Source of the DNA: an uncultured Bacilli bacterium
GTDB lineage: Bacteria > Bacillota_I > Bacilli_A > RF39 > UBA660
Assembly (NCBI GenBank): GCA_934129945.1
Contig: CAKOXC010000002.1
Span: forward strand, 53,747-117,746
Reading direction: 5' to 3'
DNA length: 64,000 nt
Notes under the pieces: generated by a model
Seen by the model: the letters and a program-made list of their open reading frames with translations, nothing else
Databases searched by the model: none
Told to the model about the DNA's origin: nothing
Made by a program: the position numbers and the translations under genes
Part shown: positions 20,596-35,895 of the stretch, piece by piece
Layout: each line of letters starts with the position of its first letter
Numbering within the stretch: the stretch's first letter is position 1

Positions 20596-22506
20596 CTACT
20601 TCCTAAAATCGTCTTCCAATGTAAAGTCAACATTTTCATTAATCCATTCTTTACGTGGTTCAACCTGATCTCCCATTAAAACATGAATTCTTTTTTCTGC
20701 TAAAGCAGCATCAGTTATTGAAACTCGCATAAGTCTTCTATTAGCTGGATCCATAGTTGTTTCATAAAGCTCATCAGCATTCATTTCACCAAGTCCTTTG
20801 AAACGTTGAATCTTTGTTGTACCTTTAATTTTCTTCTTCATTTCTTCTAATTCTTCATCTGTAGCTATATATTCTTTACCATGAGATGTTTCAATTGAGT
20901 ATAAAGGTGGTGTAGCAATATAAAGCATTCCCTCTTCAATTAAAGGTCTCATAAAGCGATAGAAGAATGTTATTAATAATATTTGAATATGAGATCCATC
21001 AACATCGGCATCGGTCATTATTATAATTTTTCCATAATTACTTTCGCGATAATCAAATTCTTGACCAAGTCCAGCACCAATTGCATATTCTATTAGTTTT
21101 AACTCAGCATTACCATTTATTTCATTTGCACTTGCTTTTTCACAATTTAAAACTTTACCACGAAGTGGAAGTATTGCTTGAGTTTCTCTATTTCTAAATA
21201 ATTTAGCTGAACCACCGGCACTATCTCCTTCGACTAAGAATAATTCGTTTTTCATATAATTTTTTCCTGTAGCTCTTGCTAATTTTTCACTAACTACTTT
21301 TTCACGAGTATTCTTACCTTTACCATTACGGGCAGCTTCTCTTGCTTTTCTTGCGGCTTCACGAGCTAACTTACTTTTTTGAGCTTTTTCAATAATATTC
21401 AAAGCTATTTCTTTATTTTCTTCTAAAAAGAACTTAATGTTATCATAAGTTATTGTTTCAGTAACATTACGTGCTTCTGGAGTACCAAGTTTACCTTTAG
21501 TTTGGCCTTCAAATTGTAATAGATTTTCCGGTATCTTAAGACTTATAACAGCAGTAAGTCCTTCTCTAACATCACTACCATCAAAAGACCCATCTTTCGT
21601 TTTAATCAAATTATATTCTTTAGCATAATCATTAAAAGCTTTGGTAATACCTGTTTTAAAACCAACTTCATGACTACCACCATCACCAGTTTTAACATTA
21701 TTAACAAAAGATATTATACTTTCATTGTAGGAATCAGTATATTGTAAAGCTATATCTACTTCAATAGTATTTTTCATTCCTGTATAATGCAATACTTTAT
21801 TCAAAGTGTTTTTGCCTTCATTAATATATTCTACAAAATTAGTAATACCTTTTTCATAGTGAAAATGGGCTTCTCTCTTATCAAGTTCATCAATTACATC
21901 AATAGTTAGACTAGGTAGTAAAAAGGCACTTTCTTGCATTCTTTCACAGATTGTTGTATATGAGAAATTACAATTTTTAAATATTGAATAATCTGGTAAA
22001 AAAGTAACTGTTGTACCAGTCTTTTTAGACTCACCAATAGTTTTTAAAGGAGATTCTACTTTACCACCATCACAAAATCTAATATTAGATATTTTACCTT
22101 CACGATATATTATTATATCCATTCTTTTAGATAAAGCATTTACTACAGAGCCACCAACACCATGTAGTCCACCAGATACTTTATAATTACCTTCTTCAAA
22201 CTTACCACCAGCATGCAAAATAGTATAAATAACTTCTGGAGTTGATTTACCACTTTCGTGCATACCAATAGGTACACCACGGCCATTATCTGATATAGTA
22301 ATTGACATATCTTTATTTAAAGTAATTTTAATATGATCTCCATAGCCATTAATTACTTCGTCAATAGAATTATCTACTATTTCCCAAACTAAATGATGAA
22401 GTCCACGTTTATCAGTAGATCCAATATACATACCAGGTCTTTTTCTAACAGCTTCAAGTCCTTCTAATATTTTTATAGACGATGCATCATATTTTTTTTC
22501 TGCCAT
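20596..22506 (-). CDS. parE: DNA topoisomerase IV subunit B
   Basis: 636 aa. GHKL ATPase plus TOPRIM motifs (GLHHLVWEIVDNSIDE, EGDSAGG, PLRGKVLN). Confidence 0.8.
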   Translation of the reverse strand: MAEKKYDASSIKILEGLEAVRKRPGMYIGSTDKRGLHHLVWEIVDNSIDEVINGYGDHIKITLNKDMSITISDNGRGVPIGMHESGKSTPEVIYTILHAGGKFEEGNYKVSGGLHGVGGSVVNALSKRMDIIIYREGKISNIRFCDGGKVESPLKTIGESKKTGTTVTFLPDYSIFKNCNFSYTTICERMQESAFLLPSLTIDVIDELDKREAHFHYEKGITNFVEYINEGKNTLNKVLHYTGMKNTIEVDIALQYTDSYNESIISFVNNVKTGDGGSHEVGFKTGITKAFNDYAKEYNLIKTKDGSFDGSDVREGLTAVISLKIPENLLQFEGQTKGKLGTPEARNVTETITYDNIKFFLEENKEIALNIIEKAQKSKLAREAARKAREAARNGKGKNTREKVVSEKLARATGKNYMKNELFLVEGDSAGGSAKLFRNRETQAILPLRGKVLNCEKASANEINGNAELKLIEYAIGAGLGQEFDYRESNYGKIIIMTDADVDGSHIQILLITFFYRFMRPLIEEGMLYIATPPLYSIETSHGKEYIATDEELEEMKKKIKGTTKIQRFKGLGEMNADELYETTMDPANRRLMRVSITDAALAEKRIHVLMGDQVEPRKEWINENVDFTLEDDFRK

Positions 22507-22795
22507 TTTATCACTACTCTCTATTTAATTCTCTTTTTCTATTCTAAAATAAAAACCAGTAAAAAATCAAGTTTTTCACTAGCTTTTTATTCTTTTTATT
22601 CTCATACCCTAGTAAAAGTATATCAAATTTTTAACTTTTTTTCAAATTTAATTAATGCCATAATTAATTTTCCCTGAAAATTTTAAAATTAAAATTTTTA
22701 GGATTTTCTTCCACTTTTTCCATCCCTTGCTTTAAAAAAAAGAGCGAGGAGTGTTCTTAAAAGCAAAAGGGTTAAATTTGAATCAAAGATTCAAA

Positions 22796-24694
22796 TTACT
22801 TTGTAAGAACTAGGCGAAGTCCAATGCCACCATCGGCACCACCAGTGTGATGAATGAAGGAGAACTGACCCGCAAGTACACCATTGCCGTAACGGCCGCC
22901 TCGATGGAACCAAGAGTACGAAGAATTGGCAAAGTAAGAATTGTCAGCATACCAACCATTGTGTGGGCGATTATTACTATCTGCATCTTGATAATAATAA
23001 AATGGTCCCATCTCTCCTGTTGCATCTCCTAAGATTCTCTTACTATATGTTGTCCAATCACTATTTGCATCATATTCATCATAATATTTAGAATTGTATG
23101 ATTTTAATGATGAACTATCAAATCCTGAATCCTTATACGTTTCACTTCTAAGTGATGCCATATACTCCAAAGCTCCACCGCTCATATCATATATTCCTGT
23201 TATATTTCCTGTTGTACTTGCTTTATATCCTGTACTTGTATTATATGGTAAAGTTACACTTGCATCTGTTCCATAGGTTCCGGGGACTTTGGTTTGATCA
23301 GCACTATCTGTTGCTGCATATCCTGTTATGTAATTTGAATTATTATTTATTCTAACTTCAGTATTTATTCCATATTTTGAATGAGATAGATATGCTACTG
23401 CTCCCCATTCTGTATTTTTCATCATATGTGAGTCATTATCTCTTTTATAATTATATGCTGTTTCAAACATTGTTTTTACATTTATATTTCTTAATGATGT
23501 TTGATTTGGTTTTACTGTTATATTTGCTGTACTTCCGGTTGTTTCAAATTTTGCTACCCATAATCCATTTGTATTCATTGAAATAAATGCAGGTGAAGTC
23601 ATATAATCTCCAACCTTACAATTACCACTTGCTCCACTTGTCATTGGTGTTGTACATTCTCCATTATTTGAATCATTTGTATTTGTTGTGCCAAATTTTA
23701 TTTGAATTTCTTTTGCATTACTTGTCGTTGGCTTACTAGATGTATACCCATCAGTTTCACCTAAATTAAATATTTGATATGAATATTTTGGTATCCATAC
23801 AAAGTATGATTCAATATTATCTTCTGGTATTGTATCCCCATTATTATATATTTTAGAACTATCTGCTAAAATAACTGCATTGGCCCATTTCTTATCTTCA
23901 TATTTATACCACTCTATATTAGTATCTGCCTTTGTTACTGTTCCATCATCAGCTATTGCTACTGGTATTAAATTATCACTTAATACTGGATCTGTTCCAT
24001 TAAGTAATGCTTCTTTGTATTCAGCTTTAACGCTAGAATCAGTACTACTTGTTACTATTACTTTACCAGTAAATGATTTACCCATAGTTGATAAATCTTC
24101 AACACTTTCATCCATCCAAACATATAGTTTATATGTCTTTGACTGTCCTTTTGATACTACAGAACTATTATCACTATTCATAGTAGCTTTTGTTAGACTT
24201 CCACTAGTTAATATATATGAATTTAATATATTGTAAGTATTATTATTTTCATCAGTATAAGTATAATTATTATATTCATCATATTTTTTTGTACTTCCTA
24301 TTATCTTAGGACCTACTGTGTTGCCTTTTTCGTCAACCAGTTTGTAATCAAGATAATTATCTAAATCACTACTTCCAGTAGTGTTTAATGTTACATTATA
24401 ATACATATCAATTGAACAATTATTAGTTATTGTAAAAGTATATGGGGTATTTTTCATTGCATCAGTTTCGCTCATCGGATAAGTATTTGTTAAATTAATT
24501 GGATTTTCATCAGTTAATTCAAAAGAAAAACATCCACTTTTTATTTTATTAGTTGATTTTTGAGCATAATTTTTTTGCCAATATGCATAAGATACACCTG
24601 TAAATATTACCATAATAAATATAAATGCTAAAACTCCGATTAATGTTATTGGTAATATATTATCTTTATTAAATTTTAAATTTATTTTTTTCAT
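22796..24694 (-). CDS. Ser/Thr/Asn-rich membrane-anchored surface protein with C-terminal FGE-sulfatase (SUMF1/DUF323)-like domain
   Basis: N-terminal TM (ILPITLIGVLAFIFIMVIF). C-terminal motifs GIYDMSGGALEYMAS, HRGGRYGNGVLAGQF, GIGLRLVL resemble the FGE fold (DMxGNVWEW, RGGSW, GFRC). Start is one of three consecutive ATGs at 24694-24700 after SD AGAAGG. The 3' ~250 nt are strikingly GC-rich. Confidence 0.5.
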   Translation of the reverse strand: MKKINLKFNKDNILPITLIGVLAFIFIMVIFTGVSYAYWQKNYAQKSTNKIKSGCFSFELTDENPINLTNTYPMSETDAMKNTPYTFTITNNCSIDMYYNVTLNTTGSSDLDNYLDYKLVDEKGNTVGPKIIGSTKKYDEYNNYTYTDENNNTYNILNSYILTSGSLTKATMNSDNSSVVSKGQSKTYKLYVWMDESVEDLSTMGKSFTGKVIVTSSTDSSVKAEYKEALLNGTDPVLSDNLIPVAIADDGTVTKADTNIEWYKYEDKKWANAVILADSSKIYNNGDTIPEDNIESYFVWIPKYSYQIFNLGETDGYTSSKPTTSNAKEIQIKFGTTNTNDSNNGECTTPMTSGASGNCKVGDYMTSPAFISMNTNGLWVAKFETTGSTANITVKPNQTSLRNINVKTMFETAYNYKRDNDSHMMKNTEWGAVAYLSHSKYGINTEVRINNNSNYITGYAATDSADQTKVPGTYGTDASVTLPYNTSTGYKASTTGNITGIYDMSGGALEYMASLRSETYKDSGFDSSSLKSYNSKYYDEYDANSDWTTYSKRILGDATGEMGPFYYYQDADSNNRPHNGWYADNSYFANSSYSWFHRGGRYGNGVLAGQFSFIHHTGGADGGIGLRLVLTK

Positions 24695-24799
24695 CATCAT
24701 ACCTTCTACTCTATAAATTATTATACTAAATAAGGAATAGTAATTCAACTGAAAAACTATTTTAAATTACTAGAAATTGTTATATTTTCACCATTAAAT

Positions 24800-24846
24800 A
24801 CCGTATAATGGTATTTGCTGGTGAAAATCAATAAAAAACTCTATCA
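24800..24846. repeat. near-perfect 19-bp inverted repeat TTTTCACCA(TT)AAATACC-tataa-GGTATTT(GC)TGGTGAAAA
   Basis: Read directly; no adjacent T-run, so more operator-like than terminator-like. Confidence 0.5.
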
Positions 24847-24878
24847 GTTAAGATAAAGTTTTCAGGCATTTTCAACCG

Positions 24879-24972
24879 AGATTACTTATAACTCGCACCA
24901 CTCGGAAGCGACTAACATTTCGCGATTGGAATCACTTATAACCCGCACCATCCATAAGCGGCTAACATGTTC
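24879..24972 (+). repeat. two tandem ~44-nt relatively GC-rich direct repeats (about 85% identical) separated by 7 nt
   Basis: R1 GATTACTTATAACTCGCACCACTCGGAAGCGACTAACATTTCG; R2 AATCACTTATAACCCGCACCATCCATAAGCGGCTAACATGTTCG. The internal 4-bp stem TCGC/GCGA versus CCGC/GCGG shows a compensatory change. Confidence 0.5.
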
Positions 24973-24978
24973 GAATAA

Positions 24979-25980
24979 TTATTTTTCTATGTAATCAATT
25001 CCTAAATGTTCATAAGCTTTTTTCTCTGCAACTCTACCACGTAGTGTTCTTTTAATAAAGCCTTCTTGTAATAAATATGGTTCTATAACATCTTCAATAG
25101 TAGTCTGTTCTTCCCCAATTGATGTAGCAATAGTAGCAACACCTACTGGACCGCCATTAAATTTATTAATTAAAGCAAGTAAATACTCTTTATCTATGGC
25201 ATCCAGTCCTAAATCATCAACCTTTAGTCTTTTTAGAGCATCCATAGTTATTTCTTTAGTTATAATACTACCATTTTCTACTAAAGCAAAATCTCTAACT
25301 CTTTTAAATAATCTATTAGCTATTCTAGGAGTTTTTCTACTTCTTTTAGCAAGTTCAATTACAGCGTCTTCTTCAATTGGCATTCCAAGTACTCGACTAG
25401 TTCTTTTAATAATATTTGCAAGTTCTTCTGTAGAATAGTAATTTAGTTTTGAAACAATACCAAAACGATCTCTTAAAGGTGAAGATATATCACCAGAACG
25501 AGTTGTTGCCCCAACTAGTGTAAATGGTGGTAAATCTATTTTTAAACTTCTACTTTTTCCATCTGTTCCAATTATTATATCAAGTTCAAAATCTTCCATT
25601 GCTGGATATAATATTTCTTCGATATATCTAGGCATTCTATGAATTTCGTCTATGAAAAGCACATCTCCTGGTTCAAGATTAGATAATATTGCTGCCAAAT
25701 CTCCTGGTTTTTCTATTGATGGACCACTTGCGGTTTTTAGATTACTCCCAAGTTCATTAGCAATAATATGAGCTAGTGTTGTTTTACCTAAACCAGGAGG
25801 GCCATAAAGTAAAACATGATCTAATACTTCATCTCTCATTTTACATGCTTTAATAAAAACTCTTATATTTTCTTTAACTTCACTTTGTCCAACATATTCA
25901 TCTAAATATTCAGGTCTTATATTGTTTTCAAAATTATCAGTTGTTATTTCTTCTTGATCTAATATTCTTTCTTCCATCAT
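24979..25980 (-). CDS. ruvB: Holliday junction branch migration ATPase RuvB
   Basis: 333 aa, Walker [10 protein letters not shown], RuvB family. Confidence 0.9.
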
Positions 25981-25988
25981 ATCATTCC

Positions 25989-26552
25989 TTATTTCAATAA
26001 TAATTTAAGTGCTTCTTTTATTTGTTGCTCAATCTTTAATTCACTACTGATGTTAGGTAATATCCTTTTAATATCTTGTCTCTTATAGCCAAGAGCTTCT
26101 AGAGCTTCAATTAATTCATTTAAACTATCATCAGTTGTATCCTTTTTATCAAAATCTAATTTTCCTTTTAAATCTAAAATAATTTGTCTTGCTATTTTTT
26201 CACCAATTTTAGGAAACTTTGTTAAATATAAAATATTTTCTCTATCAATAGCATCAACTATTCCAGACACGCTACCTGTAGCAAGCATTGGCATAGCCAT
26301 TTTAGGCCCTAATCCCTTAACCCCAATTAGTCGCATAAATAAATCTTTTTCTTCTTCACTTTTAAAGCCATATAAACTATATTCGTCTTCTCTAATATAG
26401 TTATAAAGATAAACTTTAAAATTTTGTCCTATTTCAAAGCTAAATGGGTTAGCAACATATATTTGATAACCAATTTTGTTATTATCTAAAACTATATAAT
26501 TACTTTTTGCATCTATAATTGTTCCTTGTATATAATTGTACATTACTATCAC
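25989..26552 (-). CDS. ruvA: Holliday junction DNA helicase RuvA
   Basis: 187 aa. HhH region [10 protein letters not shown], adjacent to ruvB. Confidence 0.85.
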
Positions 26553-26624
26553 ATCCTATTTAATAGTAACATAAGAAACTTTGTTCGTCAATTAGTGAAA
26601 GAAAAAATCACGATTTTATCGTGA

Positions 26625-26966
26625 TTAGTTTCTTTCTTTAACTTTGTATTCTCTACGCATTCCTTTAATGAAGTTAAGTTTAGCACGTCTAACAAGACCT
26701 TTTTTAACTACTACTATTTTATCAATAGTTGGAGCGTTAACTGGGAATATTCTTGTAATACCAATTCCATAAGATTTTTTACGAACTGAGAAAGTTTCAG
26801 AAACTCCACTACCTTTTTTAGCAATTACTAATCCTTCAAAAGCTTGGATTCTTTCTTTTTTACCTTCTTTTACCCATACATCTACACGTACAGTATCTCC
26901 AACACGGAATTCAGGAATATCTTTTTTAATGTGCTTTTCATTAATTTTATCTACTAAATTAGCCAT
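26625..26966 (-). CDS. rplS: 50S ribosomal protein L19
   Basis: 113 aa. DIPEFRVGDTVRVDVWVKEGKKERIQAFEGLVIAKK matches L19. Confidence 0.9.
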   Translation of the reverse strand: MANLVDKINEKHIKKDIPEFRVGDTVRVDVWVKEGKKERIQAFEGLVIAKKGSGVSETFSVRKKSYGIGITRIFPVNAPTIDKIVVVKKGLVRRAKLNFIKGMRREYKVKERN

Positions 26967-27051
26967 TATATATCTTCCTTTCTATAAATATCTTGTATAA
27001 TCATAAAAATATATTTCAGCGGATTATATGTGCTTTTTAACAAGCAAATGT

Positions 27052-27080
27052 ATTATATCAAATAAACTTTGAAAATGCAA
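27052..27080 (-). promoter_or_regulatory. sigma-A promoter for rplS: TTGCAT-17-TATAAT
   Basis: -35 at 27075-27080 and -10 at 27052-27057 on the minus strand. ~80-nt leader may correspond to an L19 ribosomal leader. Confidence 0.5.
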
Positions 27081-27096
27081 ATAGATATTTTAAAAT
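27069..27096 (+). promoter_or_regulatory. sigma-A-like promoter TTGAAA-16-TAAAAT on plus strand, back-to-back with rplS promoter
   Basis: Hexamers at 27069-27074 and 27091-27096. Drives the short plus-strand transcript ending at terminator 27179-27214. Confidence 0.4.
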
Positions 27097-27103
27097 TGCA
27101 TTA

Positions 27104-27214
27104 CAATAAAGTTTATGTTATTATTAATTTAGTGAGAAGCAGATTTCTTTAGGGAATGATGCTAACCACATGGGTTATGCATCTTTATTCAGTCAGAATA
27201 AAGATGCTTTTTTT
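27104..27214 (+). ncRNA. candidate ~110-nt small RNA delimited by promoter and strong terminator; convergent with small hydrophobic peptide gene
   Basis: No convincing ORF (longest about 22 codons without SD). Ends 1 nt from the stop codon of minus-strand peptide ORF. Confidence 0.35.
27179..27214 (+). terminator. strong intrinsic terminator: 12-bp stem GCATCTTTATTC/GAATAAAGATGC, 5-nt loop, T7
   Basis: Read directly. Confidence 0.7.
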
Positions 27215-27215
27215 A

Positions 27216-27308
27216 TTATACTAATATAAATATCAATTTATAAATTATATATAATAATATGATTATTAAGATAAATAATCCGAAGATTAAAAAATCTTTT
27301 TTAGTCAT
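27216..27308 (-). CDS. 30-aa hydrophobic peptide MTKKDFLIFGLFILIIILLYIIYKLIFILV (candidate type I toxin-like / small membrane peptide)
   Basis: Strong SD AAAGGAAGTGA 6-9 nt upstream of ATG. Consensus promoter TTGAAA-16-TATAAT about 95 nt upstream. Not in the ORF track (too short). Confidence 0.45.
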   Translation of the reverse strand: MTKKDFLIFGLFILIIILLYIIYKLIFILV

Positions 27309-27400
27309 ATATAATCACTTCCTTTACTACTTTTAAACCCCCTGAATTAAATCCCTAGATAAGAAAGTGATTAGCATCTTTTTCTGCTTCTCGAAAATGT

Positions 27401-27428
27401 ATTATATAGTAATTTTTTGATATTTCAA
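27401..27428 (-). promoter_or_regulatory. sigma-A consensus promoter TTGAAA-16-TATAAT for small peptide mRNA
   Basis: -35 at 27423-27428, -10 at 27401-27406 on the minus strand. Confidence 0.5.
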
Positions 27429-27465
27429 GGCTTTCGACAAATACTGACAAATGTTTTATTAAAAC

Positions 27466-27492
27466 ATTAAAAAATTAGCAATTTTTGCTAAT
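27466..27492 (-). terminator. intrinsic terminator after orf120: ATTAGCAA-aaa-TTGCTAAT + T6
   Basis: Read on the minus strand immediately after the stop at 27493. A second perfect palindrome AATGTTTTATTAAAACATT lies at 27449-27467. Confidence 0.6.
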
Positions 27493-27855
27493 TTATCTTC
27501 CAATTGTTTTTGAATCATATATTTCTTTTAATTGAAGTTTATTATTTGAAATACCAATTTTATTTAAATAAGAATTAAAATTATAATCATCAATTTTTTC
27601 AAACTTATTTTTTGAATTTAAATCTATTAACAGATATTCATCAATATTTTCTTTAATATCTATTAATATAAAATAATAATCATTAATTCCATATAGATCT
27701 AATGTATTTATTATTTTATTATCAATTCCTGCCATATTTAAATCCATAGACATTCTTTTATAAATATCTTTTGGCTCTTTGCTTAAGTCATTCCTAAATT
27801 GTATTTCTTGTAAAACCTTATTAACAACCATTTCAATTATCAAAACATTATTCAT
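27493..27855 (-). CDS. hypothetical protein (120 aa) inserted between trmD and rplS
   Basis: No recognisable domain. Overlaps upstream orf151 stop by 1 nt (coupled). Confidence 0.45.
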   Translation of the reverse strand: MNNVLIIEMVVNKVLQEIQFRNDLSKEPKDIYKRMSMDLNMAGIDNKIINTLDLYGINDYYFILIDIKENIDEYLLIDLNSKNKFEKIDDYNFNSYLNKIGISNNKLQLKEIYDSKTIGR

Positions 27856-28310
27856 TATCTTCCTCTTCCTTTCTTCTCTTCAACTTCAAAATTTTCTTCT
27901 ATATTATTTAAAGTATTTATGTAAACTATCTTTGCTCTAAGTTCATTTTCTAAAATTCTTAAACTTTTTATATATTTCTTTTCTTTTTCTTTTTCTAAAA
28001 ACTTTTGATATTTATTTAAAATAATAGAGCGTAATTTAGCTATTTCATCAAGTGCTATTGTAGCATCAGTAGAAGTATTATCATCATCGCTATTTATAAC
28101 ATCATAAGTTATAGCTGCTAATCTTTTAAAATTTTTATCTATTTTTTTTGATAATATTATATCAATCATAGAATGATTAAAGATAGTTATCTTATTTATA
28201 TCTGCATCTGTATGAGTAATTCTTGGCCTAAAATCATACCCATCATTATTAATACTCAATTTAACAATATCAATTTCTTCATCATGTTTTTTTATTAAAA
28301 AACTAGACAT
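27855..28310 (-). CDS. hypothetical protein (151 aa) immediately downstream of trmD
   Basis: Starts 9 nt after trmD stop. Acidic; no recognisable domain. Confidence 0.45.
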   Translation of the reverse strand: MSSFLIKKHDEEIDIVKLSINNDGYDFRPRITHTDADINKITIFNHSMIDIILSKKIDKNFKRLAAITYDVINSDDDNTSTDATIALDEIAKLRSIILNKYQKFLEKEKEKKYIKSLRILENELRAKIVYINTLNNIEENFEVEEKKGRGR

Positions 28311-28318
28311 ATTCTCAC

Positions 28319-28981
28319 CTACTTCAATAAATCACTTCTACGTTTTTTTGTTTTTTCTATTCTACTATTTTCTCTAAATTCTTTTATTTTTTTATGATCA
28401 CCACTTAAAAGAACATCTGGTACTTTCATTCCCCTATATTCTCTTGGTTTTGTATATGTTTCATAATCAAGTAAATCATTAGTAAAACTTTCATCATCCA
28501 AGCTTTCTTTTGTTATAACTCCGTCAATTAATCTTGTTATACTATCAACTAAAATCATCGCTGGTATTTCTCCGCCAGTAAGTATATAATCTCCAATACT
28601 TATTTCATAGTCACACAATGTTCTTATTCTTTCATCAAATCCTTCGTAATGACCACAAATAATTATTAAATGTTTTATTTTACTAAATTTATATGCTGTT
28701 TTTTGATTATAATTATTTCCATCAGGTGTCATCATTACTATAATACTATCTTCAGTTCTTATATCATCAATACAATCAAAAATAGGCTCGCACCTTAAAA
28801 CCATACCAGCTCCACCGCCATATGGTGTGTCATCAACTTGATTATTTGATAACTTAGAATATTTTCTAAAATCTATTAAATTAATTTCTACTTTTTTAGC
28901 ATCTATAGCTCTTTTAATAATTGATTCCTTTAATATGCCTTCAAACATATTTGGAAATAAAGTCAAGATATCTATCTTCAT
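28319..28981 (-). CDS. trmD: tRNA (guanine37-N1)-methyltransferase
   Basis: 220 aa, MKIDILTLFPNMFEG... TrmD signature. Confidence 0.9.
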   Translation of the reverse strand: MKIDILTLFPNMFEGILKESIIKRAIDAKKVEINLIDFRKYSKLSNNQVDDTPYGGGAGMVLRCEPIFDCIDDIRTEDSIIVMMTPDGNNYNQKTAYKFSKIKHLIIICGHYEGFDERIRTLCDYEISIGDYILTGGEIPAMILVDSITRLIDGVITKESLDDESFTNDLLDYETYTKPREYRGMKVPDVLLSGDHKKIKEFRENSRIEKTKKRRSDLLK

Positions 28982-29469
28982 AAAATCAAATCCTTAGCAT
29001 TTTCTGTATAGACAATTTTATTTTTTAAATCTACTTTTCTTATATAATAGTCATTATAAGGAATATAAAAATTTTTTTGCCCCTCAATAATTAACAATAT
29101 ATTGCCATTATTATACATAAAATCTTTTAATTTTCCTAGTATTTTTTCATTTTCTTTTATTTCAAAATCTATTAAATCTTCTAATATATAGTTATTATCT
29201 TCAATTTCTAAATCTTCTCTATTTATATAAACATTATTTCCTTTATATTTTAGGACTTCATTAATATTATTTATTCCTTCTAAAGTTACCATATCAAATT
29301 CTTTATGTTTGCGATATGTTTTAATAATTTCTTTTTCTTTATTAGGACCAATATACAGAGTAAAATCTTTTTTAAATACTAAATCCTTTTTTAAAAAATC
29401 AGAAAGAATTCTAATTTCGCCTTTAATACCATGAGTATTCACAATTTTTCCTACATATATATACTTCAT
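28978..29469 (-). CDS. rimM: 16S rRNA processing protein RimM
   Basis: 163 aa, VGKIVNTHGIKGEIRI motif, upstream of trmD. Confidence 0.85.
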   Translation of the reverse strand: MKYIYVGKIVNTHGIKGEIRILSDFLKKDLVFKKDFTLYIGPNKEKEIIKTYRKHKEFDMVTLEGINNINEVLKYKGNNVYINREDLEIEDNNYILEDLIDFEIKENEKILGKLKDFMYNNGNILLIIEGQKNFYIPYNDYYIRKVDLKNKIVYTENAKDLIL

Positions 29470-30173
29470 TTTTTTACCCCCAATTCATACATTAAAATGG
29501 ATGCAGCAACACCAGCATTTAAACTCTCACATTCTTTATTCATTTTAATTGTTATATTTTTATCACAAAGATTCAAAATATCTTCTTTAATACCATTTCC
29601 TTCATTTCCTATTACTAATGCTATCTTAGAATCATTTTCAAAATATCCCTTGCCATTAACTGTTGTAGCATAAATGGTATAACCATTTTCCTTTAATTTA
29701 GGTATTATTTCAATCAATTTTTTTCTTACAATATTAATATTAAATATCATGCCTTCACTAGATCTTATTACTTTATCATTATATAAATCTACACAATCAT
29801 CAGATAGAATTATTGTACTAATATTAAATGCTACAGCACTTCTTATGATTGTTCCTAAATTTCCAGGATCTTGAATATTATCTAGAATTAAAATTTTATC
29901 TCCTTCAACTTTTTTTTCTTCTATTTTTTTTACTACTGCTATTTCTTTAGTACCACTTTTTTGACTAGATAGTTTTTTTAATATTTCAGGATTTACTGTA
30001 TAATCATAAGTCTCATTAAGTCCAATGGTTGAGACAACCATTTGTTTTTTTAAAGCTTCTTTTATTAAATGGTCACCTTCAATAAGAAAAAGACCTGCCT
30101 CATCACGATATTTTTTTTCTTTTAATTTATTCCAATTTTTTACTTTTGCATTGGATAATGATTCAATTTTCAT
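29466..30173 (-). CDS. SpoU/TrmH-family RNA 2'-O-methyltransferase
   Basis: LFLIEGDHLIKEA and ILILDNIQDPGNLGTIIRSA motifs. Confidence 0.75.
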   Translation of the reverse strand: MKIESLSNAKVKNWNKLKEKKYRDEAGLFLIEGDHLIKEALKKQMVVSTIGLNETYDYTVNPEILKKLSSQKSGTKEIAVVKKIEEKKVEGDKILILDNIQDPGNLGTIIRSAVAFNISTIILSDDCVDLYNDKVIRSSEGMIFNINIVRKKLIEIIPKLKENGYTIYATTVNGKGYFENDSKIALVIGNEGNGIKEDILNLCDKNITIKMNKECESLNAGVAASILMYELGVKK

Positions 30174-30805
30174 TAAACTTCCCTCAATTCTTTTCTAGCT
30201 TCTTTATATTTAGGATAATATTTACTTACATGCTTCCAAAATCTTGCACTGTGATTTGCTTCATAAAAATGACATAGTTCATGTATTATAACATAATCTA
30301 AAAGATGTGGTTCTTTTTTTAATAATTCTGAATTTAAAGTTATATTTCTTTTTGTTATATTATTGACTCCCCATCTAGTTTTCATTTTTCTAATTTTTAA
30401 AGTAAATTTTGGAATATTATTAAAGTATGGGACTATTCTATTTACTTCATTTCCGAATATTCTTATACATTCTTTATCATAAAATTTTTTTAAAGCTTTG
30501 TCATCTTTAGCAAAAACTAGATCATTGTCAAAATAAACATTTTTTGTTGCATTATCATAAATTATAGTATATTTTTTACCTAGATAATTAAAAAATAAGT
30601 CATTTTGCATTTCTTTATTATTTCTCAAGTACATCTTATATAATGAATCTTCATTATTTTTTATAAGTTCTTGAATTCTTTTTAAACTCACTAAGCGATT
30701 ACATGTAACAACTAAATTACCATTTTTAAATCTAAAATAAATATTTTTGTTATTTTTTCTAATAATTTCTACGTTAATAATTTCATTATTTAATTCAATT
30801 TGCAT
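30173..30805 (-). CDS. YgjP-like M48/DUF45 (WLM/SprT-like) metal-dependent hydrolase
   Basis: C-terminal HELCHxxxxNHSARFW motif. Confidence 0.65.
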   Translation of the reverse strand: MQIELNNEIINVEIIRKNNKNIYFRFKNGNLVVTCNRLVSLKRIQELIKNNEDSLYKMYLRNNKEMQNDLFFNYLGKKYTIIYDNATKNVYFDNDLVFAKDDKALKKFYDKECIRIFGNEVNRIVPYFNNIPKFTLKIRKMKTRWGVNNITKRNITLNSELLKKEPHLLDYVIIHELCHFYEANHSARFWKHVSKYYPKYKEARKELREV

Positions 30806-30813
30806 ATAATCAC

Positions 30814-31239
30814 CTAATTATTTAAAATTAATGTTTCTCTAAAAGGATTAAAACCTAATGAAAGATAAAAGTTTTTAGCGACAATATTGTCACTCATGAC
30901 ATTAATTAAGATTTTGTGAATATTTTTTTCATTAATCACTTTTATTATTTCTGTTACCAATGTTGTTGCAACTTTTTTATTTCTATAACATTCATCAACA
31001 TATAAAGCATCAATTACTGCATCTTCAGCATTTATAATTACATAAACATACCCAACAATTTTATTTTCTTCCTCACATAGGTAAATAATATTGTTCTTCC
31101 CTAAAACATTTTGATAAAAATTTTGTACTTTAAAATTTTTATCTATACTTTTATCATATTTTCTTTCATCCATTATCAATTTTGTAAGCATTGTATCCAA
31201 AATACTACAATCTTCAACATTTGCAAATCTAAAAGTCAT
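30814..31239 (-). CDS. GNAT family N-acetyltransferase
   Basis: 141 aa. Acetyl-CoA binding region YVDECYRNKKVATTL, GNAT fold pattern. Confidence 0.65.
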   Translation of the reverse strand: MTFRFANVEDCSILDTMLTKLIMDERKYDKSIDKNFKVQNFYQNVLGKNNIIYLCEEENKIVGYVYVIINAEDAVIDALYVDECYRNKKVATTLVTEIIKVINEKNIHKILINVMSDNIVAKNFYLSLGFNPFRETLILNN

Positions 31240-31313
31240 TTTTACACCTCATATTTATATTTTATCATAAAAAAAGCAATTGAAGAAACTATTTATCAAT
31301 TACCTTTGTTGTT

Positions 31314-32198
31314 TTAATTTAATTCATTTTGTTTTTTTATCTCATTTATCTTTTCAATTGATAAATTTGTTATTTTAGAAATTGCGTTAATAGCAATTTC
31401 TTCATTTAACATATTTTTTATCGTTTTGATTTTTTCTTGTTCTTGTCCTAATTTAAGTCCTTTTTCTTCACCAAGCTTAATGCCTTTTTCATATCCTGTA
31501 TCTTCTGCTTCTCTTATTAATGAGTTTTGCATCTTTCTTTGATCTTCTTCATGACTCATATATTCTTGAAAAAATGGATCGTTATTTAATATTGTTACAC
31601 TCTCTACATATTTTTCTGATATCTTATCACTTTTTGGCATTTTCTTTAACTCCCCTTCATTTAAATCTAACATTACTAAAAGTTCATTTTCTTTTATCTT
31701 TTTTTCATCCTTACTATACCAAATTTTTTTATAATATTCCATATTTATTTCTATTATTAGTAAATTTTTTACATACACATTTCCATTTTTATCAATTATT
31801 CTAAATTCTCTTTTGCTTTCTTCATAATCGAGTCCCCATGTCAAATTTATTTGAATTATATCAATATCTTGATTACATGTATCACCAACTAAAGCATTAG
31901 TTGAATATACATTACAAATATATGCGGTATTTCTTATATACACATATTCATTAATACTTGCATTTATCTCTATTTCTATCTTTTTATTTGTAGCAAGTAT
32001 TAAGGCGTCTACTCTTTTTGATTTTATTATATTATTACCTACTATTAACTCTGTTGGAAGTATTTTTTTTATTTCTATTTTCACTTTTAATATATCTTCT
32101 AGTAAGGATTCTAGTAAATCTTCATTCTTGGGATTTAAAAATACTTCTTTAAATGTTCTATCATAACGACAACTGTAAAATTTTTGCACCAAAATCAC
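31314..32198 (-). CDS. Rpn-family recombination-promoting nuclease / putative transposase, copy 2 (GTG start)
   Basis: DRTFKEVF N-terminal motif, C-terminal EKGIKLGEEKGLKLGQEQ...IKNMLNE repeats. Begins at GTG with tightly spaced SD. Confidence 0.5.
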   Translation of the reverse strand: MILVQKFYSCRYDRTFKEVFLNPKNEDLLESLLEDILKVKIEIKKILPTELIVGNNIIKSKRVDALILATNKKIEIEINASINEYVYIRNTAYICNVYSTNALVGDTCNQDIDIIQINLTWGLDYEESKREFRIIDKNGNVYVKNLLIIEINMEYYKKIWYSKDEKKIKENELLVMLDLNEGELKKMPKSDKISEKYVESVTILNNDPFFQEYMSHEEDQRKMQNSLIREAEDTGYEKGIKLGEEKGLKLGQEQEKIKTIKNMLNEEIAINAISKITNLSIEKINEIKKQNELN

Positions 32199-32210
32199 CC
32201 TTTCTATCTA

Positions 32211-32243
32211 ATATAAAAAGAGAACATTAAAATTCTCTTTTTA
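32211..32243 (-). terminator. intrinsic terminator closing the bacteriocin operon
   Basis: AAAGAGAA-8nt loop-TTCTCTTT then T-rich run on the minus strand, immediately after peptide B stop. Confidence 0.5.
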
Positions 32244-32396
32244 ACAAAAATTTCTGTTAATCGCTCTTCTTATAGTAGATCCAACAGTTCTTCCAAATTC
32301 TAAAATTGTGTTTACAGCTCTTGCAGCAGCATTTATGTAAGTAGCAGTCCAACTACCACCAGTAATATTAATTAACTCATTTCTTTCTATTTTCAT
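32241..32396 (-). CDS. double-glycine leader bacteriocin-like peptide B (51 aa): MKIERNELINITGG|SWTATYINAAARAVNTILEFGRTVGSTIRRAINRNFC
   Basis: Manually translated. Leader fits LSxxELxxIxGG consensus. ATG overlaps stop of peptide A (TAATG). Not in the ORF track. Confidence 0.6.
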   Translation of the reverse strand: MKIERNELINITGGSWTATYINAAARAVNTILEFGRTVGSTIRRAINRNFC

Positions 32397-32530
32397 TATT
32401 TATTACACTTTAATGGTCTCATAAAGCCATCAAATACTCCTACTATAAAAATTCCAAATCCTGCTATTGCTAACCATAACCCTTTGCCACCACCTGTGAC
32501 ACTGTTTAAATAATCATTACTAAGTTTCAT
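32396..32530 (-). CDS. double-glycine leader bacteriocin-like peptide A (44 aa): MKLSNDYLNSVTGG|GKGLWLAIAGFGIFIVGVFDGFMRPLKCNK
   Basis: Manually translated. Hydrophobic mature part with GxxxG motifs. ATG overlaps stop of orf139 (TAATG). Confidence 0.6.
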   Translation of the reverse strand: MKLSNDYLNSVTGGGKGLWLAIAGFGIFIVGVFDGFMRPLKCNK

Positions 32531-32949
32531 TAACCTAAAACTCCCTTCATTATTTTTTTAATTATCAAATCTTTATTGTAATAAAAAGTTATTTCTACTA
32601 TTTCATTATTTTCTTTCTTCGTTTTATTAGTAAATTGAATCTCTTGAACATTAATATTTCCGTTGCTATAAATATCACTATATTTAAAAGAGTCTAAGAC
32701 AAATAAAGAATTATTAATTTTATATTGATAACTTTGTGATATTTTTTTAGCATTTAAAACATTTTCTGTTAATACAATGTAATTATCTTTTATGATTCCA
32801 TTAGTTATGTATTTATTAGGGATTTTAAAAAAAAGGAAAAAACTAATAATTGACATAACTATGATTAAATAAAAAATAAATATAATTTTCAATTTTTTAT
32901 GTTTTCCATAAACAAAATTCAAATCTTCTAAATTAAGCATTTGCTCCAC
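32530..32949 (-). CDS. single-TM accessory/immunity-like protein of bacteriocin operon (139 aa)
   Basis: One N-terminal TM. Overlaps ABC gene stop and peptide A start; function inferred from position only. Confidence 0.4.
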   Translation of the reverse strand: MEQMLNLEDLNFVYGKHKKLKIIFIFYLIIVMSIISFFLFFKIPNKYITNGIIKDNYIVLTENVLNAKKISQSYQYKINNSLFVLDSFKYSDIYSNGNINVQEIQFTNKTKKENNEIVEITFYYNKDLIIKKIMKGVLG

Positions 32950-34975
32950 CTATTTCTAATACTTCATCAAAATATTCTTCATAATCCTTATGTGTAACAT
33001 AAATTATTGTTTTATTTTTAAGCTTTAAATTAAGTTCTTTTATTATATCTATTTCTAAATTTCTATTAACCTCGCTTAAGGCTTCATCAAGTATCAAAAT
33101 TGATGAATTTTTATATAGAGCTCTTGCAAGGATAATTCTTTGTTTTTCTCCGCCAGATAAATTGTTAAAATTTTTATTAATAAAAGTTTCATAGCGTAAC
33201 GGCTTTTTGCAAACTAATTCTTCTAAATGACATAATTTACATATTTCAGTAAATTTTTTTATATTAAATTCATTATTTAATATAATGTTATTTTTAATAG
33301 TATCGTCAAATAAAAATTCATTTTGTGATAAATATGTAATATTTGATCTAATAGTAGCTAATGGGTAATCAAATATATCTACATTATCTATTGTAATAGT
33401 ACCTTTTTGTAATTCATAGGTTCTATTTAGTAATTTGCAAAACGTCGATTTACCAATTCCACTTTTTCCTTTTATCATAACATGAGAATTTTTTTTGATT
33501 GTGAGGTTGACATCATTTATTATATTGGTATAGTTGTTATAGGAAAATCCTACATTTTTGGCGATTATATCGCCATTTAAAAATGGTTCTTTTAATTCTA
33601 AGTTTTCTTCTTTATTATCCATAAACTCAATATTTTTTTCTAAAGAAGCTTTTAAATAATTACATTTTGGGATTAATTCCATAAAAGATTTAATCGGATC
33701 TATTAAATAAACAAAGACAGATTCAAATGTAATAAAATTTACCAAAGTTATTTTGTCATGAAATAGTAGATAAAAACCAAAAGTTATCAATGTATAATGC
33801 ATTAAATCAAGTACACCATTTTTAAAACTATTTATTAAATTCATAGAACTATTAATTTTAAAAATAGATTTTAAATAATTTATAATGTTTTTTTGCATTT
33901 TAATAATAAAATGACTTTCTAAATTATTATTTTTAATTGATTCAAAAGCATTACAAGATTCACTAATACTTTCATTAAACTTTTCATTACATTCAATGTT
34001 TCTTCTAATTATTCTATAAATAAATTTACTTGTTATTAATGCTATTAAAAGGTAGGAAGTGACAAAAAAACATAATATCATTAATAATTTTGAATTTATA
34101 AAATATAGAACAATAAAAGAACATATAGCTAAAAATAAATTCATAATAGTGCTTATAACTACTTCAGATATTACTTCATGTAGATTATTAAGTTCTAAAA
34201 CTCGAGTTATAATTTCACCTGATGATCTATTTTTAACAATTTTAGAAGGAAGATTAAAAAATTTTTCAAAAAATGCTTCGTTTAAATTATAATTAATATC
34301 TTTTATCAAATAATTCTTATAATAATTACTAATAAATTCAAATATTAATTTACTAAAATATAAAAACAAAAATAAGAATGCTACTGGTTTTAAATAATTT
34401 TGATTATCTAGATTATTGAAACATAATTTAAAATACATACTATTTAAGATGGTTAGAAATGTTATTATAAAACCAGTAATAATAATATTTATAAAAAGTT
34501 TTTTATTATTTTTTATAATATTAGAAATAAACTTGTAAATATTCGTCTCTTCTCTTTTTATAATATTATCTTCTTTAGGATATGCAACTATCACTACTCC
34601 CGTAAAAATTTCATAAAAATCTTGATATTTTATTTTTACTATTCCTTTATAAGGATCCATGAGAGTAATAAAATTTTTACTTAATTTGTAACAAACTACA
34701 TAATGGTTTAAACCATTTTTTAAGGACAAGTGAACAATTGCTGGTAGATTTAATTCTTTATCAATCTTATCTACTTTTAATCCATAGGAATCAAAGCCAT
34801 ATTTTTTTATTGCTTCAACCAAATTATAAGCTGTAGTTCCTGAAATATTGGTATAACAATCATTATGAATTATTTCAAGTGGCACATAACCATTATAATA
34901 TTTTAGTAATGACAAAATACAACATGGTCCGCAGTCTTTGATATCTCTTTGTTTTACTACTTCTATTTTTTGCAT
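32933..34975 (-). CDS. bacteriocin-type ABC exporter with N-terminal C39 peptidase domain (LagD/ComA family)
   Basis: N-terminal QRDIKDCGPCCILSLLKYY (C39 Cys), 6-TM region, C-terminal Walker A GKSGIGKST and LSGGEKQRIILARAL. True start probably ATG 34975 (SD AGAAGGGAGA); track start 35038 reads through the conserved promoter cassette. Confidence 0.8.
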   Translation of the reverse strand: MQKIEVVKQRDIKDCGPCCILSLLKYYNGYVPLEIIHNDCYTNISGTTAYNLVEAIKKYGFDSYGLKVDKIDKELNLPAIVHLSLKNGLNHYVVCYKLSKNFITLMDPYKGIVKIKYQDFYEIFTGVVIVAYPKEDNIIKREETNIYKFISNIIKNNKKLFINIIITGFIITFLTILNSMYFKLCFNNLDNQNYLKPVAFLFLFLYFSKLIFEFISNYYKNYLIKDINYNLNEAFFEKFFNLPSKIVKNRSSGEIITRVLELNNLHEVISEVVISTIMNLFLAICSFIVLYFINSKLLMILCFFVTSYLLIALITSKFIYRIIRRNIECNEKFNESISESCNAFESIKNNNLESHFIIKMQKNIINYLKSIFKINSSMNLINSFKNGVLDLMHYTLITFGFYLLFHDKITLVNFITFESVFVYLIDPIKSFMELIPKCNYLKASLEKNIEFMDNKEENLELKEPFLNGDIIAKNVGFSYNNYTNIINDVNLTIKKNSHVMIKGKSGIGKSTFCKLLNRTYELQKGTITIDNVDIFDYPLATIRSNITYLSQNEFLFDDTIKNNIILNNEFNIKKFTEICKLCHLEELVCKKPLRYETFINKNFNNLSGGEKQRIILARALYKNSSILILDEALSEVNRNLEIDIIKELNLKLKNKTIIYVTHKDYEEYFDEVLEIGGANA

Positions 34976-34977
34976 AT

Positions 34978-35050
34978 TTTTTCTCCCTTCTACTATCTTA
35001 TTACAAAAAAATATCTCATTTCCTTTTTTTTCTTGCAAATTTCTTTAAAA
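34978..35050 (-). promoter_or_regulatory. conserved promoter/leader cassette, copy 3 (upstream of C39-ABC/bacteriocin operon)
   Basis: AAGAAATTTGCAAGAAAAAAAAGGAAATGAGATATTTTTTTGTAATAAGATAGTAGAAGGGAGA then ATG; matches copies 1 and 2. Confidence 0.6.
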
Positions 35051-35053
35051 AAT

Positions 35054-35080
35054 TTAAAAAAATCGTCATTTTCGACGATT
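35054..35080 (-). terminator. intrinsic terminator of upstream membrane-protein gene
   Basis: AATCGTC-gaaaat-GACGATT then T7 on the minus strand. Confidence 0.55.
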
Positions 35081-35797
35081 TTTCTTCTTTTTTGTATTAT
35101 TTTTGTCTTTTTTCATCAAAGAAATTTCTTTTTGTTTGTCTTTACTTAAATTAGGAAAAGCTTTTAATAATCTACCTGGGAATATTTTAAATTTTGCCAT
35201 TCTTTCTTTTAATGTTTTTTCAAATAATAAAGGTATTTTACTTAATTTTTCACTTTTAAGTTCTTCTACTATTATTAATCTGTTACGAAGATTAAATGCA
35301 ACAACACAAGAATATATAATATCAGAAAGTAACAATATAGTTATTAAAATTAATGAAATATTAAAAATGTTGTGTGGTATAAGCATAATAAATTTATCAA
35401 CTAATGGTTCAACTAAATAAATAATTGCTAAAGAACCAAAACCAAACATAATCGAATTTAGTAAACATATTCTTCCATTGATATTATACTTATAATTATT
35501 ATAATCCCACCACATATTATGAAATATTTTTTCAAGTAAAAAACTAGTAAAGTATTCTAATGCAGAACATATAATCATTCCAAACACAAAAACAACTAAT
35601 GGATCACTTTTATATCTTGATAATGCAAATAATATAAATATTGCTCCAAATCCATAGATTGGAATTAATGGTCCACATAAAAAACCTCTAGGACTAAATT
35701 TTTTATCAAGAATAGCACAAAATAATGTTTCACAGATAAACCCGATAAAACTATATAAAAGAAATGTTGTATATAAATAAATAAATACTTTCATCAT
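35066..35797 (-). CDS. polytopic membrane protein (possibly DUF1113/CmpB-like putative ABC-transporter type IV family)
   Basis: 243 aa, about 6 TMs, lysine-rich C-terminal tail. Family assignment tentative. Confidence 0.35.
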   Translation of the reverse strand: MMKVFIYLYTTFLLYSFIGFICETLFCAILDKKFSPRGFLCGPLIPIYGFGAIFILFALSRYKSDPLVVFVFGMIICSALEYFTSFLLEKIFHNMWWDYNNYKYNINGRICLLNSIMFGFGSLAIIYLVEPLVDKFIMLIPHNIFNISLILITILLLSDIIYSCVVAFNLRNRLIIVEELKSEKLSKIPLLFEKTLKERMAKFKIFPGRLLKAFPNLSKDKQKEISLMKKDKNNTKKKKNRRK

Positions 35798-35895
35798 TAG
35801 CTCCCTCTATTTAATAACATTATATCACAAAAATATTTTTTTAGAATAAATAATACTACACATACATATTATGTATTAGATTATTGGAGGAAATT

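Follow-up and report, generated by a model that had tools for sequence, protein, structure and literature searches.

In many Firmicutes trmD is followed directly by rplS, and in Bacillus subtilis the operon order is rpsP-khpA-ylqD-rimM-trmD-rplS. Here, we describe the region between trmD and rplS in an uncultured Bacilli bacterium (GTDB lineage Bacteria; Bacillota_I; Bacilli_A; RF39; UBA660; assembly GCA_934129945.1, contig CAKOXC010000002.1, positions 53,747 to 117,746), where the two genes are separated by two uncharacterized genes, orf151 and orf120, and by a short unit in which the gene of a 30-amino-acid (aa) hydrophobic peptide converges with a putative small RNA (sRNA). The stretch of 64,000 nucleotides that was analyzed is referred to below as the window; its G+C content is 24.6%. 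An earlier, sequence-only reading had taken everything between trmD and rplS for a single foreign module. The features it described (the operon genes, the terminator, the promoter and Shine-Dalgarno (SD) sequence of the peptide gene, the rplS promoter) are all present, whereas its explanation holds for the peptide/sRNA unit only and fails for orf151 and for the rplS promoter. The gap is probably built of three layers of different age, namely a core gene, an accessory gene that is young, and a multi-copy unit that was acquired recently and is itself likely a chromosomal type I toxin-antitoxin module.

Organization of the Locus

All genes of the trmD-rplS region are encoded by the minus strand. 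The genes and signals outside the peptide/sRNA unit are listed below; loci and contigs used for comparison carry L numbers, ORF stands for open reading frame, and positions are those of the window.

30173-30805, minus strand: gene of a YgjP-like peptidase, the first gene of a tight operon
29466-30173, minus strand: gene of a SpoU/TrmH methyltransferase, in the same operon
28978-29469, minus strand: rimM, in the same operon
28319-28981, minus strand: trmD (ORF table; Pfam tRNA_m1G_MT, E 6e-60), with a 4-nt overlap with rimM
27855-28310, minus strand: orf151 (ORF table), coding for a conserved protein always found 3' of trmD in the lineage
27493-27855, minus strand: orf120, a young accessory gene in a variable slot
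27466-27494, minus strand: intrinsic terminator of the trmD operon, TTAGCAA-AAA-TTGCTAA followed by T6 (inverted repeat; -7.3 kcal/mol)
27052-27080, minus strand: rplS promoter TTGCAT-17-(TG)TATAAT (promoter scan; conserved in L007 and L001)
26967-27045, minus strand: rplS 5' leader with the motif UAAUCCGCUGA...AUGAUUA at 27026-26997 (conserved in relatives)
26625-26966, minus strand: rplS, coding for ribosomal protein L19 (Pfam Ribosomal_L19, E 8e-40)

Neighboring genes of the operon overlap by 1-4 nt, the sole exception being an 8-nt spacer between the trmD stop codon and the orf151 start codon. The start codon of orf120 overlaps the orf151 stop codon by 1 nt (TAATG), and the two genes are translationally coupled. 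The A+T-rich terminator reported after orf120 is indeed there; it is too A+T-rich for the terminator scanner and was seen as an inverted repeat and by its fold energy. In the region, three terminator-like sites were observed compared to 0.4 expected. The operon terminator is absent from L007 and L001, both of which lack the peptide/sRNA unit, and it shields the promoter of the peptide gene against read-through.

Architecture of the Peptide/sRNA Unit

The unit of ~335 bp occupies about 27108-27441, and the window is ~400 bases longer here (about 27490-27085) than L007 and L001, which have only ~118 bp between orf120 and rplS. For the unit, then, the idea of an accessory insertion is borne out. 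Its parts are the following, the peptide being called the toxin and UTR standing for untranslated region.

27401-27428, minus strand: toxin promoter TTGAAA-16-TATAAT (promoter scan), conserved together with the upstream TTTGTCGAAAGCC in L031, L033 and L035
27309-27393, minus strand: toxin 5'UTR (folds, inverted repeats, pair counts)
27383-27392, minus strand: 5' arm of helix A, GAGAAGCAGA, in the toxin 5'UTR
27367-27378, minus strand: 5' arm of helix B, GAUGCUAAUCAC, in the toxin 5'UTR
27361-27372, minus strand: anti-SD, AAUCACUUUCUU, in the toxin 5'UTR
27313-27324, minus strand: SD region, AAGGAAGUGAUU, in the toxin 5'UTR
27216-27308, minus strand: gene of the putative toxin, a 30-aa hydrophobic peptide, MTKKDFLIFGLFILIIILLYIIYKLIFILV (ORF table; grand average of hydropathy 2.18)
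27132-27215, minus strand: 3'UTR of the toxin mRNA including a hairpin (folds, pair counts), fully complementary to the sRNA
27158-27169, minus strand: 3' arm of helix B, GUGGUUAGCAUC, in the toxin 3'UTR
27134-27143, minus strand: 3' arm of helix A, UCUGCUUCUC, in the toxin 3'UTR
27096-27124, plus strand: sRNA promoter TTGCAT-17-TATTAT with an extended -10 element (TGn) (sequence reading; TGnTATTAT kept in all paralogues)
27132-27214, plus strand: putative antitoxin sRNA of ~82 nt (terminator, fold, consensus structure, covariance model)
27179-27207, plus strand: sRNA terminator hairpin with a 12-bp stem and T7 (terminator scan)

The promoter of the peptide gene matches the consensus at 11 of 12 positions and is the best in the region, and the SD sequence of the peptide is AAGGAAGTGA (AAGGAAG). 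A small (<60 aa) hydrophobic ORF with its own promoter and ribosome-binding site is generally expected of a type I toxin gene, and the peptide ORF, which is kept in paralogues, is of this kind. On the plus strand, the terminator lies one base from the peptide stop codon, as had been noticed before. The sRNA likely starts near 27132 because the conserved extended -10 element TGnTATTAT sits at 27116-27124; the plus-strand promoter proposed previously (TTGAAA at 27069 and TAAAAT at 27096) has to be replaced, since paralogues conserve this element and TTGCAT at 27096-27101 instead. Opposite the toxin 3'UTR, the extended -10 element and the terminator with its U7 tract delimit a predicted RNA of ~82 nt composed of a 5' stem-loop, a hypervariable linker, the terminator hairpin, and U7.

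Structure of the Two RNAs

The fold of the toxin mRNA (minus strand, about 27393-27132) has a z-score of -6.7 and contains helix A, helix B, and an anti-SD/SD hairpin, all of which recur in the five unit sequences that were folded (the window and four others). Helix A pairs GAGAAGCAGA (27392-27383) with UCUGCUUCUC (27143-27134), helix B pairs GAUGCUAAUCAC (27378-27367) with GUGGUUAGCAUC (27169-27158), and the SD hairpin pairs AAUCACUUUCUU (27372-27361) with AAGGAAGUGAUU (27324-27313); in every unit, the free energy predicted for the anti-SD/SD duplex falls between -9 and -15.6 kcal/mol. Folding that blocks translation initiation, with a sequestered SD and long-range pairing, is another general property of type I toxin mRNAs, and here it is indicated by both prediction and covariation.

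Because a MAFFT alignment of whole units misaligned the 5'UTRs of two unit types, base pairs were counted on a hand-registered, N-padded alignment that was anchored on invariant flanks. The alignment was fitted to the helices that are proposed. Across its 7 distinct sequences, pairing holds in 93% of cells, compared to 37-58% when the partners are slid by 1-3 columns, and helix B is 100% paired. Compensatory double changes are found in three pairs, one in helix A (G-C to A-U) and two in helix B (A-U to U-A and A-U to G-C). The anti-SD also co-varies with the flank of the SD (UCACUUUCUU/AAGGAAGUGA, CUACC/GGUAG, CCACC/GGUGG), and all single substitutions that distinguish strains within the helices are wobble-compatible. 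A further possible pairing, UAGGGA/UCCCUA, would cross helix B, and we make no claim about it. A third occurrence of GAGAAGCAGA, at 31504-31513, was rejected as a chance match inside a PD-(D/E)XK gene.

The sRNA fold has a z-score of -3.7, and its shape is conserved, as are the promoter motif, the body, and the U-tract; a covariance model of the sRNA yields matches of 87-115 bits, in relatives only. The complementarity of the sRNA to the toxin 3'UTR is exact and covers the 3' arms of both helix A and helix B. Both the toxin mRNA and the sRNA begin with GAGAAGCAGA, and therefore the two RNAs cannot pair at their 5' ends. When the 3'UTR is blocked in silico, the accessibility of the SD calculated from the partition function decreases in four of four unit types (0.036 to 0.017, 0.58 to 0.43, 0.33 to 0.07, and 0.48 to 0.28).

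Distribution and Natural Deletions of the Unit

Only the window species and its sister lineages were found to have the unit, which also occurs at other places in the genome. A sister species whose flanks are 93% identical (L022-L024) has the unit, with two synonymous changes and one V-to-I substitution in the peptide ORF. A pattern scan of metagenome contigs revealed complete paralogous units between gltX and a dinB-like gene (L031), upstream of sufC (L033), and between dut and an NfeD gene (L035), as well as a partial one upstream of tex (L032). In one metagenome, at least three paralogous copies are present at similar coverage. One half of the chimeric contig L028 shares 99.3% identity with the suf flank and the other half 97.7% identity with the window, which indicates that the window species carries several copies of the unit. 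In each case, the copy starts immediately behind the T-run of the preceding gene's terminator, and 105-166 nt separate it from a downstream gene in the same orientation. Paralogues retain the peptide ORF, also in a diverged form of 35 aa, and the changes in it are synonymous or conservative. Neither blastn nor the sRNA covariance model detected further copies in the window or in more distant relatives, and neither the unit nor the proteins have matches in a viral contig scan or in phage and plasmid collections. The sequence string of the peptide was not found in the literature searched.

Alleles of the locus were read from human-gut metagenome contigs in which orf151 is 99-100% identical; L038-L049 derive from Hadza and other human-gut samples. 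The unit is intact in the window and in L038, L044, L045, L047, and L048. Deletion A (L026-30, L040, L041, L043) removed an arm of the terminator, the -35 element, and the whole 5'UTR and left the ORF frameshifted; deletion B (L039, L042) removed the sequence from the terminator T-run to codon 6. Both deletions retain the sRNA side. At the suf locus, similarly, a truncated toxin accompanies an intact sRNA in L036, while L033 carries the full unit. Altogether, the toxin side was lost three times independently and the sRNA side alone was lost in none of the alleles seen, as would be expected of a toxin-antitoxin pair, albeit in a small sample.

Two of the deletion A alleles, L040 and L041, also differ on the sRNA side: the -10 element TATTAT is changed to CATTAT, CCC is changed to TTC in the 5' stem-loop, and the start region is altered. 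Such extra substitutions in toxin-dead alleles would fit relaxed selection on an orphan antitoxin. Several contigs that begin in the trmD operon switch, in the unit or just after it, to the flanks of other unit copies (L028, 3404-3624, to sufC and L046 to tex) or to another flank with a minus-strand gene (L029, from about 3590 on), and L006 and L023 end inside the unit. Such contigs reflect either real recombination between copies or chimeric assembly across a dispersed repeat.

The Genes and Signals Flanking the Unit

In a large clade of uncultured low-GC gut Bacilli, orf151 belongs to the core genes; it is inherited vertically and is translationally coupled to trmD. A scan that covered one genome per GTDB species found orf151 in 16 species-level genomes, each of which keeps the YgjP-SpoU-RimM-TrmD-orf151 order, and orf151 is located directly 3' of trmD in six further loci (L001, L003, L005, L037, L054, L055; L001 duplicates L008 of the 16 genomes). 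About 20 distinct species-level loci were examined, all with this linkage. The linkage holds even in members that are 20-33% identical (L005, L037, L054, L055). The constant partner of orf151 is trmD and not rplS, because the genes downstream of orf151 vary: rplS follows it directly in L016, L017, L019, and L021 and is not adjacent to it in L003, L005, L054, and L055, and elsewhere its place is taken by an orf120-like gene, unrelated small genes, or genes for MutS, a Mur ligase, a HAD hydrolase or a peptidyl-prolyl isomerase. The presence of orf151 at the junction in every related genome compared (an outcome that the sequence-only reading had itself set as refuting its proposal, albeit here without any annotation), its G+C content at third codon positions of 0.10, which is like that of its neighbors and presents no compositional anomaly, and the lack of matches in phage or plasmid collections all contradict the proposal that this gene is foreign. 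The hosts are uncultured gut metagenome-assembled genomes (MAGs) labeled Bacilli, Erysipelotrichaceae, "Tenericutes", Candidatus Coprovivens, and Candidatus Ventrenecus. Five MAGs that carry the orf151 block (L011, L012, L014, L017, L019) are labeled "uncultured Muribaculaceae bacterium", which is probably a taxonomic mislabel of the bins. In L005 (3478-3840) and L054 (2416-2823), an extra uncharacterized gene of 120-135 aa is found between the SpoU methyltransferase gene and rimM, and this position is a second variable slot of the operon.

There are 55 orf151 homologues in a database clustered at 90%, and a profile search found 673 representatives at 50% identity with E <= 1e-3, 362 of them with E <= 1e-10. 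No homologue has a name beyond "hypothetical", none of the homologues listed has an entry in the precomputed Pfam column, and none of 10 diverse members scanned reaches a Pfam threshold. The orf151 protein itself has no detectable sequence similarity to Pfam, NCBIfam or PDB entries and no PHROG or PADLOC match above threshold; the similarity to the HepT-like toxin PF20797 (13.3 bits with a cut-off of 27, E 0.09) is below the gathering threshold. Both orf151 and orf120 are thus as uncharacterized as the sequence-only reading had them. In an AlphaFold2 model based on a 41-sequence alignment, 45 N-terminal residues of low confidence are followed by a confident three-helix bundle, a plain fold with generic matches only. 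The N-terminal ~45 residues carry the conserved motifs GYxFxP and NKITI..SMID, and the basic tail ends with RGR.

Our best guess, held with low confidence, is that orf151 may be a helper in tRNA or ribosome maturation that acts beside TrmD or RimM, as its linkage, its translational coupling, and its RGR tail suggest. Such a partnership would explain why the position after trmD and the coupling are kept at 20-30% identity while the downstream genes change; weighing against it is that gene linkage is all the functional support that the proposed role has. Another small uncharacterized gene of the rimM-trmD neighborhood is ylqD of B. subtilis, but orf151 is downstream of trmD and not upstream of rimM. 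The strict linkage with trmD marks this large unannotated family as a candidate translation-apparatus factor and could guide the annotation of MAGs.

The variable slot downstream of orf151 is filled by orf120, an accessory gene of recent origin that is confined to the closest relatives. A direct search found only six close homologues, and a hidden Markov model (HMM) of the family matches only the window, L022, L025, L007, and L001, always after orf151. Genes that follow orf151 in more distant genomes were considered as diverged orf120 homologues and rejected, as the HMM finds none. There is no match above threshold in Pfam, NCBIfam, PHROGs or PADLOC. The only fold class that orf120 weakly resembles is the transglutaminase/papain-like cysteine peptidase fold, the catalytic Cys and His of which it lacks. 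Members of both families end with Gly-Arg: ...K(G/S)RGR or ...RGGR in the orf151 family and ...(I/L)GR in the orf120 family (27855-27860 and 27493-27498 in the window).

The rplS promoter TTGCAT-17-TATAAT is present at 27080-27052, with TG, but it was not gained through an insertion. The orf120-rplS gap of ~118 bp in L007 and L001 aligns with positions 27085-26967 of the window, including the -35 element, the -10 element, and the leader; the promoter and leader are therefore ancestral, being conserved in relatives that have no peptide/sRNA unit. The UAAUCCGCUGA...AUGAUUA motif is kept upstream of rplS as far as L037, L021, and L015, with some compensatory pairs. It has no match to the Rfam L19 leader (RF00556) and may be a lineage-specific L19 autoregulatory leader.

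A Possible Mechanism

If the unit is a type I toxin-antitoxin module, its strong promoter would drive the synthesis of an mRNA for a 30-aa membrane peptide. This mRNA would be translationally inert, its SD being paired with the upstream anti-SD, and its 5' end would be protected by being clamped to the 3'UTR through helices A and B. The convergent sRNA would pair with the 3'UTR over ~82 nt, forming a long duplex that may serve as an RNase III substrate, and thereby free the 5' end of the mRNA. The same pairing would release AAUCAC, which is common to helix B and the anti-SD, and tighten the SD hairpin; since the two elements share this sequence, removal of the 3' arm lets the full anti-SD close on the SD. 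The sRNA would thus have two effects on the mRNA, destabilization and translational silencing, like those of SR4 on bsrG.

The unit matches no known toxin family in Pfam and no RNA family in Rfam, and its closest functional analogues are bsrG/SR4, txpA/RatA, hok, and aapA1. As in bsrG/SR4 of the B. subtilis SPbeta prophage, txpA/RatA, bsrE/SR5, and yonT/SR6, a small hydrophobic peptide toxin would be opposed by a convergent antisense RNA fully complementary to the 3' end of its mRNA, and degradation of the duplex is expected. SR4 also changes the structure around the bsrG SD, blocking translation (PMC8167048), and the in-silico shift of SD accessibility in the unit goes in the same direction. 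In contrast to these systems, with which it has no sequence, Rfam or Pfam similarity, the unit encodes a peptide that has a charged N-terminus (MTKKD) and is hydrophobic to its C-terminus, its sRNA does not overlap the coding region, the 3'UTR targeted by the sRNA is itself paired to the 5' end of the mRNA, and its copies are located between housekeeping genes and not in a prophage.

A primary toxin transcript that is locked by a 5'-3' long-distance interaction and has a sequestered SD likens the unit to hok/sok of plasmid R1 and aapA1/IsoA1 of Helicobacter pylori. In hok mRNA, the lock is the fbi/tac pairing. In aapA1 mRNA, too, a 5'-3' lock is combined with a sequestered SD (PMC8167048), and AapA1, like the peptide of the unit, is 30 aa long. 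The antitoxins of these systems, which belong to Gram-negative hosts and have no sequence similarity to the unit, pair with the 5' region of the 3'-processed mRNA, whereas the sRNA of the unit is encoded opposite the 3'UTR and would compete with the mRNA 5' end for it.

Convergent RNAs that meet at a shared hairpin also characterize par of pAD1 (Fst, RNA I, RNA II) from Enterococcus faecalis, where these are the toxin mRNA and an sRNA (PMC8167048). Unlike par, whose 5' direct repeats make the two RNAs complementary there, the RNAs of the unit are complementary only across the toxin 3'UTR; furthermore, the hairpin of the unit has a U-tract on the sRNA strand only, and its peptide has no Fst-family match. 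A helix between the 5' end of RNA I and a downstream segment is said to stabilize RNA I (Shokeen et al. 2009).

Type I modules are hard to find because their peptides and RNAs are short and lineage-specific, and databases of such modules cover mostly cultured Proteobacteria and Firmicutes. The unit would be a candidate family from uncultured Bacilli of the human and animal gut, with covariation support for its mRNA and a natural series of toxin-side deletions, and it offers a test case for how an antisense RNA that overlaps the 3' end of an mRNA controls a distant ribosome-binding site.

Alternative Explanations

Several observations weigh against the toxin-antitoxin interpretation of the unit. 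The peptide matches no known toxin family (Pfam, NCBIfam, PHROG and PADLOC at E <= 1; Fst, Ldr, Hok, and TxpA/BsrG-like families), and hydrophobic ORFs rich in I, L, F, Y, and K arise easily in A+T-rich sequence. A scan of 20000-36000 gave no Rfam family at E <= 1 in 26400-28400 (RatA, SR4-like, par RNA II, and Sok among them). Promoter-like hexamer pairs occur at chance density (32 compared to 28.5 +/- 5.6 in shuffles at 24.6% GC), and what makes the promoters credible is their conservation in paralogues and relatives rather than their agreement with the consensus. The toxin mRNA has no recognizable intrinsic terminator on its own strand after helix A and may read into rplS. The covariation comes from two unit types and strain variants only, and the sRNA itself has no compensatory changes; in the second unit type, a U.G pair of the shared hairpin in the mRNA sense is a C.A mismatch in the sRNA sense. 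Finally, the shift of SD accessibility is small for the window unit (0.036 to 0.017).

A bolder proposal, which we regard as doubtful, is that orf151 founds an unrecognized family of TrmD/RimM partners in tRNA or ribosome maturation in a large clade of uncultured gut Bacilli with reduced genomes and, as a second reading of the unit, that the toxin 3'UTR competes with the anti-SD and the sRNA mimics the 5' end of the mRNA to remove this competitor.

Alternatively, the unit may be a structured RNA or a miniature mobile repeat without toxin-antitoxin function, in which the ORF is untranslated or codes for a harmless membrane protein and the helices keep the RNA stable or control the next gene in the same orientation (rplS, sufC, dinB, nfeD or tex). 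Consistent with this, each copy sits immediately behind the upstream terminator and has a co-oriented gene 105-166 nt downstream, and there is no own-strand terminator after the unit, which makes read-through into the next gene possible; hydrophobic ORFs occur by chance in A+T-rich DNA, and the unit resembles dispersed repeats in that contigs break there or join different loci. Yet the ORF, the SD, and the start codon are kept across diverged paralogues while the UTRs change with compensation, and it is specifically the SD that is sequestered, which is relevant only if the ORF is translated. Moreover, the downstream genes are functionally unrelated, the promoter and leader of rplS are conserved where there is no unit, the ends of the unit showed neither terminal inverted repeats nor target duplications, and the one-sided deletions removed the toxin side three times and the sRNA side never. 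We consider this explanation improbable and prefer the type I toxin-antitoxin module.

It is very unlikely that orf151 and orf120 are a two-gene protein toxin-antitoxin or defense pair lodged in the operon, as might be suggested by the overlap of these two small genes (TAATG) and by weak sub-threshold matches (HepT-like_2, E 0.09; PADLOC DHH_CorA, E 2.7e-4 over ~57 residues). Most genomes have orf151 without orf120 and with unrelated genes downstream, the matches stay under the curated cut-offs and concern a helical stretch of low complexity, the model of orf151 shows a plain bundle of three helices, and orf120 is without the catalytic Cys and His of the sole fold class that it weakly resembles.

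The acquisition of orf151, orf120, and the unit as one horizontally transferred cargo between trmD and rplS, an idea to which the direct succession of these two genes in many Firmicutes and the absence of a recognizable domain in all three components lend some appeal, deserves almost no credence, as it is already contradicted by synteny: orf151 is clade-wide, orf120 is limited to the closest clade, and the unit occurs in the window species and its sisters and also elsewhere in the genome, the composition is not anomalous, no relatives turned up in phages or plasmids, and the rplS promoter and leader are ancestral. The three components, differing in age and distribution, are not one module. For genome scans, this is a caution that uncharacterized genes in a conserved operon can be lineage-specific core genes and not cargo.

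Neighboring Genes

Three further genes of the minus strand lie in the vicinity. At 22796-24748, a protein of 650 aa is encoded that is rich in Asn, Ser, and Thr, has an N-terminal hydrophobic segment, and has no Pfam match. A few kb upstream of the operon, there are a PD-(D/E)XK transposase-like gene (PDDEXK_2) at 31314-32198 and, at 32933-35038, the gene of a C39-peptidase ABC exporter of the bacteriocin-export type.

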